From a virus: 64,000 nucleotides of DNA. The notes under the pieces were generated by a model. That model was not told the origin of the DNA and did no database searches. It saw nothing but the letters and a program-made list of their open reading frames with translations. The stretch's first letter is position 1. Each line of letters begins with the position of its first letter. The DNA is taken from positions 32,001 through 96,000 of the IMG/VR virus record IMGVR_UViG_3300023184_000029; one strand, written 5' to 3'. A program made the translations under genes and the position numbers. Of the stretch, positions 2,752 through 55,623 are shown piece after piece.

Positions 2752-5439
2752 CTACTTGATCAAACTACTCAACTGAATCTTTAATAGGTCAATATTCTCC
2801 TGACTCATCTGCTGGATCCAATCCTTACCAGAATTTCCATAGTATGAGTGACGATCCTCAAGAATAGGATTCTGACTAGGCTTTAGGTCTGTCAAATTAC
2901 CAGATACTTGATGATTCCCCATAATAAGCTTTAGCATAGGATTCTTATCTATCTCAGTTTTGATCTGCTCCCTAATTTCAGAGATTTTCCATCTTTTAAG
3001 ATCCTCAGTAGAAGTCCCACGAATAATCTTGAGATAACCCTCTGCTTTTGTACTATTATCTCCAGAGTACAAAGAGTTGGAGATCATGCGAGTCAAGGTA
3101 TTGTAGGCCAAATTAGCATTACGAATCTCCTTACCGTCAACATCTTCAATGCCAATTTCTTTCATAAGCTTAGAGATATGAGATAGATATTCTGTTTGCT
3201 TAAACTTACTAATATTAAAAGGACTCATATGAACAGTATTAGCAAAGAACTCTGTTAGCATAGTCTTATTCAAACAATCTACAAGAGTCTTGTTGTTAAT
3301 AAACTTATCATAATCTAGACCAAAGATATTCAGAATATGAAACATAAACTGCTTATCTGTTGTTCCATGCCTATTATATGCGTATCCTCCAGAGGTCTTC
3401 TCCTCTGTTGCATAGTCCTTCTTACAATATTCAACAAGCTTGTTGATAGAAGAAAGATTCTTAAAATGTTTTTCTGCTACAACTTTAAGCTGTCTCTTCA
3501 AAAAGTCGTTGAAGTTAACAAGATTGTATCCGTCTTTCTCAAGCTTTTTAGCAAAAGCTGTTTTGATAGCATAAACCTTACTATCTCCAACCAAGTCCTT
3601 GACTATACTCTTGAGCGTTTCATCTCTAAGAGTAATACCAATATCATTAATCTGTGGATAGCCAGACGCAGGTTCAGTCTTATAGCGAAGCATAGGAACA
3701 TACACGATCTCATCTTGTTCCAGAAAATCTTCCAGTTGTTCTTCTGAAAGAATTCTCAGACAAGTAGCGTCGTTGTAAGGATTGGTAATCTGCTTGCTAT
3801 CCTTATCATAACCATGAATAAAGAATACGTCTTGATCGCTAACGCTACCATTAGAATTTCTATTGTAAGACTTTCTTGGTCCAGAACTTTGTGTCAGATG
3901 TTTGTAGTCTGAAACCTTGAGTAGATTTTCAGCCCCAACATCTTCAATCAGTTGATCAAAACCTTCTCCGCTTTTTGTATGATCCTTAGTATCAATCAAG
4001 AGGTATGCAAAGCAATCATTTGTATTACAATATTTTGTAATAATTTTCTTAGCAGTCTCTTCACCCTTAACGTCACACACAAAGAAACTCATCTGACCTT
4101 TCTTTTTCTGGTTATTCCAATAACTATAACCTTTACCAGTAAGAGTTTCGTGATGAATCTTATCAGTCAGAGCAACCATGCGACGAGAACGAAACCCAGC
4201 AGTCTTGTAATTAAAAACATACAGACTCTTGCCAGCCGGAATTTTATATTCCAGATCGTTACCAGAATTGATGGGATGATCTTTGCCCTTGGGATCGGTC
4301 CAAGATGCACCAACTCCCCATCCTCCAGCCAGTTCGTTCATGGTATAGTATGAAGTAATGGCTTCTACTTTAGTTTTAGAAGTTTGAATTTTCTTGGAGA
4401 ATTCTTCCTTCATCTCAATATAAATTTCTTGAGTCTTTTTACGAAGGGTCTTGATCACATCTTTAGTATACTGCAATCCTTCCCGGCTTACGTCCATCTC
4501 AAGTTGACCGATATTAAAATCCAACTCAAGATAAAGACCAGAGTTGATAATCTCACTAACAAAACTCTTCCAACTATCAATATCTGCTTTTTGGAAAGCT
4601 CTATTCCACTTCTGAATATGATCTGGCATCTCTTCCTTTTCTTGACCCACAATCTGTGCTGTCTGAACAGGATACGCAATATTGCCCATGATAGCTACAA
4701 CACCACTATCAATACGATGATAACTATTAGGATAGTATTGAGTATCATTATTCAGTCGGCAAACTCTCCACCCGTCACCACTAATAACGATGCTAGTATT
4801 ACTATACTTATGATCTTGTAAACCACTCCCGATACCACCCTCAATAATAGGTTTCATACGGAAATAATGGAAGATTCTCTTAGCCTTATCTGTAAATTCT
4901 TGGAAGTCATGCTGCTTAACAGCAAAACTAATCTCAAGACCATTAGGCTCAGATGTATTAGAAGTATTAAAAAGATTGAGGGTAGGAACACCGCTCTCAT
5001 CAATCGCCGCAATATAGGTATATTTCTTGCCATTATAATAAGATGCGGTCGTAAAACTCTTGGTATAAGCAAACGGACTCTTAGACCCTAGACCAAGACA
5101 ACCCACAAAATCATTGCTATCATTCTTGTTGGACGCTCCATAGGTTGTATACAAGTCCTCCATATCATGCTGACTAAGACCAGTACCGTAATCTCTAACC
5201 ATAAAAGTTGGATTAGCAGCGGTGGGCAGAGTTACCTTAAAAGGATTCTTATTACCAGCAGAAATGTGGCTATCATAAGCATTAGTTGAAAGCTCACGAA
5301 TTGCAGCCATAACCTTGTCAGAATAAAGAGAATCTGAAAGGATTTTAAACATTTTGCTTGTTTGAGCAATATTAAACTGATTCTTGCTCGTAACACCAAC
5401 GCTGTGAGTCTCAATCGTCCTATCTGCCAACTTCATCAT
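2752..5439 (-). CDS. rIIA: RIIA-like protein (GHKL/HATPase N-terminus)
   Basis: IRELSTNAYD, DYGTGLS, GCLGLGSKSPFAYT motifs; 895 aa; next to rIIB. Confidence 0.92.
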   Translation of the reverse strand: MMKLADRTIETHSVGVTSKNQFNIAQTSKMFKILSDSLYSDKVMAAIRELSTNAYDSHISAGNKNPFKVTLPTAANPTFMVRDYGTGLSQHDMEDLYTTYGASNKNDSNDFVGCLGLGSKSPFAYTKSFTTASYYNGKKYTYIAAIDESGVPTLNLFNTSNTSEPNGLEISFAVKQHDFQEFTDKAKRIFHYFRMKPIIEGGIGSGLQDHKYSNTSIVISGDGWRVCRLNNDTQYYPNSYHRIDSGVVAIMGNIAYPVQTAQIVGQEKEEMPDHIQKWNRAFQKADIDSWKSFVSEIINSGLYLELDFNIGQLEMDVSREGLQYTKDVIKTLRKKTQEIYIEMKEEFSKKIQTSKTKVEAITSYYTMNELAGGWGVGASWTDPKGKDHPINSGNDLEYKIPAGKSLYVFNYKTAGFRSRRMVALTDKIHHETLTGKGYSYWNNQKKKGQMSFFVCDVKGEETAKKIITKYCNTNDCFAYLLIDTKDHTKSGEGFDQLIEDVGAENLLKVSDYKHLTQSSGPRKSYNRNSNGSVSDQDVFFIHGYDKDSKQITNPYNDATCLRILSEEQLEDFLEQDEIVYVPMLRYKTEPASGYPQINDIGITLRDETLKSIVKDLVGDSKVYAIKTAFAKKLEKDGYNLVNFNDFLKRQLKVVAEKHFKNLSSINKLVEYCKKDYATEEKTSGGYAYNRHGTTDKQFMFHILNIFGLDYDKFINNKTLVDCLNKTMLTEFFANTVHMSPFNISKFKQTEYLSHISKLMKEIGIEDVDGKEIRNANLAYNTLTRMISNSLYSGDNSTKAEGYLKIIRGTSTEDLKRWKISEIREQIKTEIDKNPMLKLIMGNHQVSGNLTDLKPSQNPILEDRHSYYGNSGKDWIQQMSQENIDLLKIQLSSLIK

Positions 5440-7789: not shown

Positions 7790-8058
7790 TAGGAGCGGTG
7801 GGATTCGAACCCACACTTGAAGGATTTTCTTACTACTATAGTTTTCACTACCCTTTCAGTTTGTAGTCTGGACTTTATCTTAACCATAACTTTCGTTTTA
7901 GGTTCCTGCCGTCAAGTCTCTACACCTTCATATTTCTATGCTTGGCTCGGTATTAGCAGTTAAGCCTTCACCGAATTTGACAGGTTCTACTTTAGAGATT
8001 TCTCTTTAAGCACTCAAATTGTATAAGTCCTTTGTCTCTGCCTTTGGACTACGCTCCC
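7790..8058 (-). tRNA. trnL-UAA: tRNA-Leu(UAA), intron-interrupted (exons 8058-8025 and 7828-7790)
   Basis: Spliced product GGGAGCG..AAGGA-CTTAAAA-TCCTT..GTGGG-TTCGAAT-CCCAC-CGCTCCT-A. Confidence 0.9.
7829..8024 (-). mobile_element. group I intron (IC3-like), 196 nt, no ORF
   Basis: 5' exon ends in U, intron ends in G; P AAATTCGGTGAA, Q AATACCGAGC, R GTAGAGACTTGACGG, S AAGATAAAGTCC. Confidence 0.9.
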
Positions 8059-14719: not shown

Positions 14720-14725
14720 ATTAAG

Positions 14726-15079
14726 TGGAGGCGATGGGAGTCGAACCCATTTGCTGCGATATTTCTAATTACATCTTCTACAAGTTTATTTCGTTATTTA
14801 TCAGACCAATTAAACTTTAACGAACAAAATTTTAATTAGACTTTTCAACCTATTATTCTCAATCAAAGCAAGTTGACCACTCTGATCCAGCAGGATTTTA
14901 CGACAATCTTTTGGACGCTCCCTGCATCGCTTCCTAAGATTGTTGCTACTATTTATTAAGCAGCAAGGGCTAACTGATTTACGCCAGTTAAGCGTTTAAT
15001 CTGGTTTTAAAGTAGCCACCAGATCAACTACTACTTGCTAATATAATCTTCTTTATCCAGTCGATACCGTTACGCCCCC
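14726..15079 (-). ncRNA. ssrA: tmRNA; tag reading frame 14985-14956 encodes (A)GVNQLALAA*
   Basis: 5' GGGGGCGTAACGGTATCGAC; 3' ATGGG-TTCGACT-CCCAT-CGCCTCC-A with G3:U70; TTAACT before the GGC resume codon; 354 nt. Confidence 0.93.
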
Positions 15080-47301: not shown

Positions 47302-47355
47302 AATCAACCTTCCTTTCTTTCCAACATTATACACCAACCAAACATACTTGTCAAG

Positions 47356-47428
47356 TGGGGGCGGTGGGACTCAAACCCACGATAAACGGTTTAAAAGACC
47401 GCTACTTTAGTCGCTAAGTTACACCCCC
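47356..47428 (-). tRNA. trnK-UUU: tRNA-Lys(UUU)
   Basis: Cloverleaf; anticodon loop CTTTTAA. Confidence 0.9.
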
Positions 47429-47468
47429 AAGGGTTTTCTAGTATACCATTCTTTTTTTATTTGTCAAG

Positions 47469-47540
47469 TGACCCCACGGAGAATCGAACTCCGATCTACA
47501 GCGTGAAAGGCTGTCGTCCTAGCCGTTAGACTATGGGGCC
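47469..47540 (-). tRNA. trnE-UUC: tRNA-Glu(UUC)
   Basis: Cloverleaf; loop CTTTCAC. Confidence 0.92.
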
Positions 47541-47580
47541 AGCCATCGCAACTCAAACGTCAGCCTCCGAAGCTTAAAAG

Positions 47581-47656
47581 TAGGGCGTGTACGAGTCGAA
47601 CGTACCTATGATCACCTTATAAGAGTGACGGATGCAACCGGCTTACCTTACGCCCC
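47581..47656 (-). tRNA. trnI-UAU: tRNA-Ile(UAU)
   Basis: GGGGCGT/ACGCCCT; TCACT-CTTATAA-GGTGA; GTACG-TTCGACT-CGTAC. Confidence 0.85.
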
Positions 47657-47714
47657 GTGTCTTTCAATCATACTCTACTTATCGGCAAGAGTCAAGTCTT
47701 GTCTTTAGAAAATC

Positions 47715-47794
47715 CTAAGTCGTTATCTGATAAGCACTTACGTCAAAAACGGCCCGCCGAATTTTTCCTAAGTCTTTTATTTTCAAATAGTTAT
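47715..47794. repeat. R1 module, copy 3
   Basis: CTAAGTCGTT-ATCTGAT-AAGCACTTAC; 26-bp linker; second palindrome. Confidence 0.9.
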
Positions 47795-47796
47795 AA

Positions 47797-47883
47797 CGGA
47801 ATCTGAGGGATTCGAACCCCCGGAGGATTTTAACCCTCGGCGGTTTAGTAAACCGCTGCCTTAAACCACTCGGCCAAGATTCC
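47797..47883 (-). tRNA. trnS-ACU: tRNA-Ser(ACU)
   Basis: Long variable arm, G73; GCGGT-TTACTAA-ACCGC. Confidence 0.88.
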
Positions 47884-47885
47884 AA

Positions 47886-47957
47886 CTCTGTGAGTAGGAC
47901 TCGAACCTACAACCGGGCGGTTAACAGCCGCCAGCTCTACCATTGAGCTATCACAGA
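47886..47957 (-). tRNA. trnN-GUU: tRNA-Asn(GUU)
   Basis: Cloverleaf; loop CTGTTAA; G73. Confidence 0.93.
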
Positions 47958-48031
47958 CCATCTTGCTTTCGAACCCGTTTGGTGTATTATACTTTAGGGT
48001 TCGATCAATTATTATAGCTGGATATCTTATA

Positions 48032-48529
48032 ATGTCAATACCAGAATTTAAAATTTGCCCAAAGTGCAAAGAAAAAAAACACAAAACCGAATATCATACA
48101 AGAAAAGACAAAGGATATACTTATCTAAAAAGCTATTGTAAACAATGTTCATCATATACCAAAACTAGAGCAGAAATACTAAAACAACAATATAACTTAT
48201 GTTCTTGTGGTAATATAAAGTCTAAAAAGGGTAAAACTTGTAAATATTGTAGTCGTATAGATCATACAGAACTATTAATAGAAAATTGCAAACACCCTAG
48301 ACGTATTGTTAAAAGAACAATAATTAGAGACAAACTTATAGATCATAAGTGTTCAGAATGTGGAATAACTAATGAATGGAATAATAAGCCTATTGTCTTA
48401 CAACTCGATCATATTAATGGTATAAATAATGATAATAGATTATCTAATTTAAGATTTTTATGCCCTAATTGCCATTCACAGACCGAAACATTTTGTGGTA
48501 GTAATATTAAAAATAAAATGCCCAGGTAG
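48032..48529 (+). CDS. HNH homing endonuclease inside the tRNA cluster
   Basis: CSECG..LQLDHING..DNRLSNLRFLCPNCHSQT. Confidence 0.9.
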   Translation: MSIPEFKICPKCKEKKHKTEYHTRKDKGYTYLKSYCKQCSSYTKTRAEILKQQYNLCSCGNIKSKKGKTCKYCSRIDHTELLIENCKHPRRIVKRTIIRDKLIDHKCSECGITNEWNNKPIVLQLDHINGINNDNRLSNLRFLCPNCHSQTETFCGSNIKNKMPR

Positions 48530-48590
48530 GACTCAAACCTACAACCCGCTGATCCAAAGTCAGCTGCTCTATCAATTAAGCTACTGGGCA
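48518..48590 (-). tRNA. trnQ-UUG: tRNA-Gln(UUG)
   Basis: U1-A72; loop CTTTGGA. Confidence 0.88.
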
Positions 48591-48591
48591 G

Positions 48592-48664
48592 AGCCGATGG
48601 CCGGGAACGATCCGGCGACAGGCAGTTTACAAAACTGCTACTCTACCAACTGAGTTACATCGGC
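48592..48664 (-). tRNA. trnT-UGU: tRNA-Thr(UGU)
   Basis: GCCGATG/CATCGGC; loop TTTGTAA; atypical T loop ATCGTTC. Confidence 0.85.
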
Positions 48665-54785: not shown

Positions 54786-55043
54786 CTACTTTAGCAGATA
54801 GGTTATTTTCTGTCCATTTTCAATCATAGCCGTATAGGCCGCAATTCGCCTATCCTTTTCACGCTTCTCAATTTGGTGGTCTGTCTCACCGATCTCTAGC
54901 GAGTCGCACTTACGCTCCAGATCAGTTAAAGAAACGCTATCAGTACGATTGTCTCTAAATTCTTCTGGCAGCCAGCTATTTGGAACCAGAATCAGATCAT
55001 TGATAAGTTTCTCAAATTCTGCCAGCAACTCATAACCATTCAT
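54786..55043 (-). CDS. hypothetical protein
   Basis: AAGGAG RBS before ATG at 55043. Confidence 0.7.
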   Translation of the reverse strand: MNGYELLAEFEKLINDLILVPNSWLPEEFRDNRTDSVSLTDLERKCDSLEIGETDHQIEKREKDRRIAAYTAMIENGQKITYLLK

Positions 55044-55059
55044 ATCTTTCTCCTTTGTA

Positions 55060-55560
55060 TTAAAACCAGCGGAACCATTTACGATCCGGTTCCTATAGCC
55101 CACACCTATAACTTTCAAGGTTTGGAAACCGCCCACGCTGCTTCACTGCTTTCGGGCACCTAATATCAGGCAGTTTATCAGAGGCAACGGTTACTGGTTG
55201 TTCGGTATCCGGCTGTTATTTCAGTGATTCTATCCGATGAAAGATAGAACGCAAGCGTAATGTTGCGGTGTTAATTCACTCTATTACCCGATGAAGGATA
55301 ATACCGGATTGTATTGGCCGTGGTGAGGATGCAATCCCCCATAGATTGGTATTCTAGCCTAACGTATAACCCCGTCAAGCAGCCTTCGGGTACGAAATCC
55401 CGGAACGCTTAGTCGAATAGGTTATCCCAATCTAGTCCAAGGCATGGACCCACGGATGTTTGTATTGTAGGACCGATTGTAGAAGACGTTTCCTAGGACA
55501 TCAACTACCGCTTTTACCGGCTGCTCGGCCCGACACAACCAACAAGTTTTCACTTGTTCT
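55060..55560 (-). ncRNA. candidate large structured ncRNA or leader (~500 nt)
   Basis: Follows the promoter at 55567-55594; many nested stems with G-U pairs on the minus strand; no credible ORF. Confidence 0.65.
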
Positions 55561-55623
55561 TCAATCATTCTACCATCTATTATCGGCTTGTCAAGAGAGT
55601 TTCTTGAAAAATTATTTCTAGAC

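Follow-up and report, generated by a model that had tools for sequence, protein, structure and literature searches.

A string of exchangeable structured RNA domains with a conserved two-domain core in uncultured phages

Analysis of the window, a stretch of 64,000 nucleotides covering bases 32001-96000 of a 186.5-kb IMG/VR virus record rated complete by CheckV, revealed that a non-coding stretch of ~500 nt on its minus strand, from about 55560 to 55065, is built as a chain of self-closed RNA domains. Two of these, domains A and C, are the conserved core of an uncatalogued structured RNA family of uncultured phages, a conclusion that is well supported by comparison of the relatives. We consider it likely that the stretch is an early-region transcript, driven by a sigma-70-type promoter and made of four independently folding domains (D5, A, B and C), with A and C as the core and D5 and B as accessory modules. 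The chain runs from the promoter through the 5' domain (D5), A, B and C to the ribosome-binding site (RBS) of an 85-aa ORF. Every domain is closed by a helix of its own and bordered by a single-stranded (A)AUACAA linker. The components of the locus are the following:

55567..55594, minus strand: sigma-70-type promoter TTGACA-16-TAGAAT with an upstream TG (TG-n-TAGAAT), near-consensus (score 11/12).
55470..55560, minus strand: D5, an accessory module with the hairpin AACAAG/CUUGUU and a three-way element closed by GGGCCGA/UCGGUCC.
55455..55469, minus strand: linker 1, with AAUACAA at 55466-55460.
55318..55455, minus strand: domain A, a cloverleaf-shaped four-way junction (covariance model R1, 156 bits).
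55310..55317, minus strand: linker 2 (CCAAUACA), with an AAUACAA copy at 55315-55309, kept after domain A in most homologues.
55207..55309, minus strand: domain B, an accessory module closed by AUCCGG/CCGGAU, with two UUCAUC hairpins and a middle hairpin CGCAA/UUGCG.
55199..55206, minus strand: linker 3, degenerate (ACCGAACA); most relatives have ACAAUACAA here.
55065..55198, minus strand: domain C, a second four-way junction (covariance model R2, 102 bits).
55044..55064, minus strand: 3' linker, with AAUACAA at 55061-55055, leading without a terminator into the Shine-Dalgarno sequence AAGGAG (55055-55050).
54786..55043, minus strand: 85-aa ORF, with its ATG at 55043 directly after AAGGAG.

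The transcript probably starts near 55560, and both the promoter and the end of the RNA before the RBS of the ORF starting at 55043 lie where the initial annotation had placed them. That annotation had also assigned the RNA a promoter-module cassette of its own; the promoter stands, and the exclusivity does not, since the RNA runs into the 85-aa ORF with no terminator between domain C and the RBS, and no internal terminator was seen in the RNA either. In the window phage the ORF, which has no match in Pfam or PHROG, is apparently co-transcribed with the RNA. In most relatives a promoter is found at an equivalent offset from domain A (-41, or roughly -122 to -129). It lies either just ahead of the linker leading into A or farther upstream by one 5' domain.

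The record carries the phage genes rIIA, rIIB and DNA ligase, with rIIA being less than 40% identical to that of any cultured phage; the members of the family are probably lake phages. None of the ten small ORFs around the RNA has a Pfam domain, except one with DUF7249. A tRNA cluster starts ~3.4 kb downstream of the RNA on the same strand. Between 50000 and 60000 of the window, 53 sigma-70-type promoter matches were counted against 24.5 expected from shuffles (twice the expectation), and the strong ones, spaced every 0.3-1.2 kb, are all on the minus strand; this spacing would fit an early region of small-gene cassettes. Other RNA elements were also recognized in the window. They include a seven-tRNA-gene cluster (47355-48664, minus strand) with a tRNA-Ile of anticodon UAU and a tRNA-Ser of unusual anticodon ACU, a group I intron (7847-8034, minus strand; 57.4 bits) and a Pistol self-cleaving ribozyme (RF02679; 51816-51878, minus strand) directly upstream of a phage tRNA-Arg (51564-51636). 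The ribozyme is kept in the related contig L047 (4010-4073), the two copies scoring 50 and 56.5 bits.

The stretch is a genuine structured non-coding RNA of the minus strand, as first proposed, according to its folding energy, the covariation within domains A and C and the lack of any ORF longer than 48 aa. The longest minus-strand ORF, of exactly that length, overlaps the promoter. The minimum free energy of the minus strand is -158.7 kcal/mol (z = -2.5 against shuffles), vs z = -0.7 for the plus strand. Frequent G-U pairs, for example those in 48/62 rows at one P4 pair and in 49/50 rows at one P1c pair, would turn into A-C mismatches on the plus strand, which identifies the minus strand as the transcribed one and bears out the earlier remark that the G-U pairs fit this strand only. 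All six stems named in the initial annotation are present, distributed over the four units: AACAAG/CTTGTT and GGGCCGA/TCGGTCC belong to the 5' domain; in domain A, AGATTGG/CCAATCT forms helix P3 and ATAACC/GGTTAT the pseudoknot; ATCCGG/CCGGAT closes domain B, and the last hairpin of domain C is formed by GGAACC/GGTTCC. Both 8-bp hairpins with UUCAUC loops were likewise located exactly, at 55303-55282 and 55249-55228.

Relatives were gathered from IMG/VR via homologues of two flanking small ORFs, yielding 39 loci, of which 26 were matched by a profile of the element. Their alignment showed strongly conserved blocks between hairpins variable in length and sequence, together with compensatory changes. 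A pattern for domain A found matches in 77 IMG/VR contigs, and one for domain C found at least 44 further confirmed loci, which together place the family in well over 100 uncultured phage contigs. Covariation, tested as the initial annotation had suggested, is present: the helices of A and C show compensatory changes in 64 and 52 distinct homologues, respectively, with 95% and 97% of cells paired vs 18-52% when the partners were slid, and the observed covariation was reached by 0/500 shuffles.

Domain A occurs in one copy only in the 186.5-kb genome, according to model R1, and comprises the following elements:

55455-55450 with 55323-55318, minus strand: P1, the 6-bp closing helix.
55449-55435, minus strand: P2, a short hairpin.
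55434-55427 with 55349-55342, minus strand: P3, which forms the long arm together with P3b.
55425-55420 with 55371-55366, minus strand: pseudoknot of the bulge AUAACC with GGUUAU in the loop of hairpin Py (55378-55359).
55419-55415 with 55354-55350, minus strand: P3b.
About 55405-55380, minus strand: variable hairpin.
55339-55325, minus strand: P4, a hairpin.

The 6-nt bulge engaged in the pseudoknot sits between P3 and P3b and locks the long arm of the domain. Among the 64 distinct homologues, 95.2% of cells are paired, vs 35-42% with partners slid, and 24 of the 43 pairs have changed on both sides; none of 500 shuffles reached the covariation observed for this domain. An unbiased scan over all pairs of columns likewise picked out P3b and the pseudoknot. 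Divergent copies in three contigs have both strands of P1, P3 and the pseudoknot replaced together; they are located in L249 (3540-3675), L293 (about 3560-3670, minus strand) and L091 (5622-5777, minus strand). The P4 hairpin of divergent copies has 5 bp and a 7-nt loop, UUGGAUU or UUGGAUC, with the look of a tRNA T-arm. Such T-loop-like P4 loops are confined to minority variants (L017, L038, L091, L249 and L293); in the majority of homologues the loop of P4 reads AUNGCRU or consists of 3 nt. The 5' flank of the domain reads ACAAAC in nearly all homologues. P1 is followed by RCCA in the window and in many homologues, the R usually pairing with the base that precedes P1, and elsewhere by UUAUA, AUUCA, AGCA or other sequences.

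Domain C is composed of the elements listed here:

55198-55193 with 55070-55065, minus strand: P1c, ACCAGU with GCUGGU.
55192-55186 with 55133-55127, minus strand: P2c, leading to arm 1.
55185-55134, minus strand: variable arm 1, with the quasi-palindrome GGUGCC at 55160-55155.
55125-55100, minus strand: arm 2, optional and variable.
55093-55071, minus strand: hairpin GGAACC/GGUUCC with the conserved 11-nt loop GGAUCGUAAAU.

In the alignment of 52 distinct homologues the paired share of cells is 97.4%, and 11/22 pairs have changed on both sides. The last hairpin is replaced in relatives, in a compensatory manner, by GAAUC/GAUUC, GUAAC/GUUAC or GGAUA/UAUCC, and its 11-nt loop is nearly invariant in the family (GGRKCGUAAAW). 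A K-turn was considered in arm 1 and rejected, its sequence being off consensus.

In most variants of arm 1 the apical loop (7-16 nt) contains a 6-nt Watson-Crick palindrome, which differs by lineage (UCAUGA, UGAUCA, GCUAGC, UGCGCA or UCCGGA) and is found in the loop of 21 of the 36 distinct stem-loop types; the density of palindromes in arm 1 is ~8 times that in the rest of A and C. With such a palindrome at the tip, two C molecules could join by a symmetric kissing loop. Replacement of one palindrome by another needs symmetric double changes, which makes it a signature of a symmetric kissing-loop dimer, and the self-complementary loop is indeed replaced by other palindromes across the family. 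The argument for a dimer rests on the position and the switching of the palindromes, because their total number, 46 vs 45 by mononucleotide shuffle, equals expectation and the sequences are related. The same kind of argument has been used for OLE L9.3 and GOLLD L21a (PMC12286853). We infer that domain C of the relatives dimerises in this way. The copy in the window carries an imperfect GGUGCC where close relatives have GGUACC, at a site that may or may not be a loop.

The two accessory modules have narrower distributions. D5 was found in 33 related loci, other relatives having a different 5' domain or none; its structure is supported by a single divergent copy (L276), because the other copies are nearly invariant in sequence. 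Domain B is present in 13 of about 200 related loci, with 93% identity, and is absent from most family members. Compensatory changes occur in its middle hairpin and in the stem of the second UUCAUC hairpin, and the UUCAUC loops are invariant except for one CUCAUC. The 16-nt hairpin motif UAUCY-UUCAUC-GGRUA (55282-55303 and 55228-55249) is invariant in ten contigs that differ elsewhere, and it may be a protein-binding site. The initial annotation had seen in the identical loops possible multimer contacts. The multimer idea gains support from elsewhere, the palindromic loop on domain C of the relatives. The UUCAUC loops are not self-complementary and, being confined to an accessory module of 13 loci in about 200, do not define the family. 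The linker motif AAUACAA occurs in the RNA as three exact copies and one degenerate copy; in the whole window it is found 19 times vs 21.8 expected. To our knowledge, it matches neither the (AAN)n nor the ANGGA motif, as a reading of the linkers as Hfq, Crc or CsrA sponges would have it.

The arrangement of the domains varies among the relatives. Sufficient downstream sequence was available for 60 copies of A; C comes after 54 of them, in the same order, and is missing from the other six. It follows A directly in 27 of these 54, and in the others an insert of 47-351 nt lies between them. Domain A is duplicated in tandem in L031, L071 and L245. In L071 the string extends over ~1 kb and consists of two A domains, two other modules, C, a spacer element and an odd tRNA-like gene, with AAUACAA between all units and AAUACAAAGGAG at its end before an ORF. 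In contig L273 (780-1090, minus strand) an unrelated structured module stands in place of A before C, and within about 15 nt after C there is what looks like the 5' half of an ordinary tRNA.

This variation bears on whether D5, A, B and C make up one ~500-nt tertiary fold that acts, and perhaps multimerises, as a unit in the manner of GOLLD and ROOL, which comes close to the single ornate fold first proposed and which we regard as unlikely on balance. Such a fold would agree with the joint occurrence of A and C, in constant order, at 54 of the 60 testable loci, with the single promoter serving the whole stretch, where no internal terminator was seen, and with the palindromic loops, which suggest oligomers; the P2 loop AUGC and the P4 loop GC(A/G)U might also form a tertiary contact. 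Against it, every domain is closed by its own helix, and an unbiased column-pair scan found no inter-domain helix with real covariation; the sole stack of at least four pairs between A and C (A14-20 with C239-247) was judged to be due to chance because its columns are invariant. In addition, most relatives either lack D5 and B or have other sequence in their place, A occurs duplicated or without C, and C occurs with another partner. The initial proposal of a single ~500-nt ornate fold is thus not upheld: the stretch consists of four self-closed domains that are dropped, swapped or duplicated in relatives, and a string of RNA cassettes with an A and C core is the better description. Given their constant order in 54 of 60 cases, A and C could equally be two domains of one functional RNA.

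What follows domain C also differs from contig to contig: an ORF, a palindromic module, a run of U residues, a promoter that overlaps the end of C, or a tRNA or tRNA-like gene, the last at 15-80 nt after C in L071, L054, L091, L075, L066 and L273. An odd tRNA-like gene lies ~75 nt downstream of C in L071 (4173-4245), L054 (10415-10487), L091 (5329-5408), L075 (8633-8710) and L066 (6010-6087), with a conserved spacer element between C and the gene. These genes score 35-48 bits with the Rfam tRNA model, and ARAGORN either misses them or reports 'tRNA-???' with a two-base anticodon.

A role as a cis-acting 5' leader of the 85-aa ORF, that is a riboswitch, thermosensor or translational operator, is suggested by the uninterrupted passage from C to the RBS of this ORF in the window and by the AAUACAAAGGAG junction that also precedes an ORF in a few relatives. 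It is nevertheless highly improbable. In other contigs the place after C is taken by a promoter, a U-tract, a tRNA-like gene or a palindromic module, the homologues of this ORF often lie 2-3 kb from the RNA or have none near them, and the RBS is unpaired, with no conserved element pairing with it. The varying downstream context and the remoteness of the ORF homologues argue against a dedicated cis-regulator, and the former favours an RNA acting in trans over a leader.

An element working at the DNA level, for instance a site of recombination or replication, or what is left of an intron or mobile element, is scarcely credible. Modules flanked by a repeated 7-mer do look like insertions with duplicated targets, and cassette shuffling implies frequent recombination at the linkers. 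The compensatory changes, however, include many G-U pairs valid on one strand only, and the pseudoknot and multi-helix junctions are conserved; moreover, no group I, group II or ribozyme model matched the element, and no reverse transcriptase, transposase, endonuclease or other nuclease gene was found among the neighbouring ORFs. A decayed or unusual protein-coding gene, for which nothing speaks other than the 48-aa ORF overlapping the promoter, is excluded by the stops in all frames, the indels of relatives, which lie in hairpin tips and do not come in multiples of three, and the substitutions paired across helices.

The RNA is new to Rfam, as the initial annotation had supposed. A search of the whole window against Rfam 15 at gathering thresholds gave no match in 55060-55560, and the region searched at E<=10 gave four chance-level matches only (12-20 bits), all to eukaryotic lncRNA or snoRNA models. 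Six relatives searched at E<=1 gave tRNA and Pistol matches only, outside the element. Families without a match include GOLLD, ROOL, OLE, HEARO, raiA, RNase P, tmRNA, group I and II introns and YrlA. No relative was found among GenBank phages (50,697 records), either by blastn with 11-base words for the element or by megablast for the surrounding 10 kb. In cellular genomes (596 Gb) the domain C pattern, too loose for a collection of this size, gave at least 120 matches, and those listed were all assigned to chance by the profile and the covariance model. A set of 10,006 candidate viral structured RNAs has been predicted from IMG/VR (Fremin et al., PMC10690425), and the A/C family may be among these unnamed candidates.

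The closest analogues are the T4 RNAs RNAC and RNAD on the one hand and GOLLD and ROOL on the other, and the family is a member of neither group. RNAC and RNAD, the small stable RNAs species 1 and 2 of 139 and 119 nt, are encoded at the end of the T4 tRNA cluster (NC_000866), head to tail after tRNA-Arg, and their function is still open (PMC9697503). Homology to rnaC and rnaD was sought in NC_000866 (69000-74000) with filters off and was rejected, the best scores being 9.4 bits for R1 and 6.1 bits for R2, neither on rnaC or rnaD. Whereas the T4 RNAs are classed as late (PMC9697503), the RNA of the window lies among small genes with sigma-70-type promoters, in what would appear to be an early region. 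Shared features are that both are non-coding structured phage RNAs of ~120-140 nt, lying head to tail and sharing a strand with tRNA genes, and that in relatives the RNA chain adjoins a tRNA or tRNA-like gene within 15-80 nt. We know of no AAUACAA linkers and no cassette shuffling in T4.

GOLLD (RF01998) and ROOL (RF03087) are similarly phage-borne, highly structured and often located by tRNA islands. They assemble via kissing loops, with palindrome-switching covariation backing symmetric contacts (PMC12286853). The switching signal is shared by domain C of the relatives, for which oligomers are predicted. In contrast, GOLLD and ROOL form one fold of 580-800 nt, whereas the present RNA is a string of self-closed cassettes with conserved units of ~135 nt each. 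The dimerisation initiation site (DIS) of HIV-1 is comparable in having a 7-16-nt loop with a central 6-nt palindrome, unpaired flanks and palindromes that differ by lineage; the resemblance is confined to mechanism, neither sequence nor context being related, and is weak for the window copy with its GGUGCC.

With tRNA and tRNA-like RNAs (the tRNA-like domain of tmRNA, YrlA Y RNAs and viral tRNA-like structures), domain A shares a four-way junction in which a 6-bp closing helix, a long arm and two hairpins, the first of them short, come together. RCCA often follows, and in minority variants a hairpin with a 5-bp stem and a 7-nt loop, UUGGAUU or UGCGAAU, resembles a T-arm. Domain A differs in having no spacer between P1 and P2, in a majority P4 loop that is no T-loop and in a CCA that is not conserved, and it is called neither by ARAGORN nor by the Rfam models for tRNA (RF00005), tmRNA and YrlA. 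The phage, moreover, encodes a real tmRNA of its own elsewhere (14723-15079, minus strand; 114.6 bits), and a search for partner proteins found no TROVE/Ro60, CCA-adding enzyme or RtcB gene. The likeness of domain A to tRNA is therefore one of topology, not of membership.

Under the preferred reading, that of an early transcript of independently folding domains, the linkers would insulate the folds from one another. They would probably also be the points at which cassettes are exchanged by recombination and the transcript is cut by an endonuclease, and processing would release stable RNAs of ~90-150 nt in the fashion of a tRNA operon. Early in infection these RNAs may work in trans as structured particles, most plausibly by engaging host or phage factors that handle tRNA-like RNA, as a decoy, sponge or scaffold. 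A bolder version, which we put forward as speculation and rate as quite unlikely, makes A and C a class of self-assembling particles, in which tRNA-shaped RNAs are cut at AAUACAA from a cassette-like operon, C forms dimers by way of its palindromic kissing loop, and host factors that recognise tRNA are captured or misled. If it were true, the targets early in infection might be, for example, anticodon nucleases, processing enzymes or defence sensors.

Abundant structured phage RNAs have resisted functional assignment before, T4 RNAC and RNAD for decades and GOLLD and ROOL still. The family described here is a widespread example in uncultured phages, with well-determined secondary structures that include a pseudoknot, an unusual build of exchangeable cassettes and a sequence signature of RNA-RNA dimerisation. 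With a sigma-70-type promoter and domains A and C of only ~135 nt, it would be easy to express, probe and image in a laboratory host, and it may thus offer a tractable entry to the role of tRNA-associated phage RNAs.
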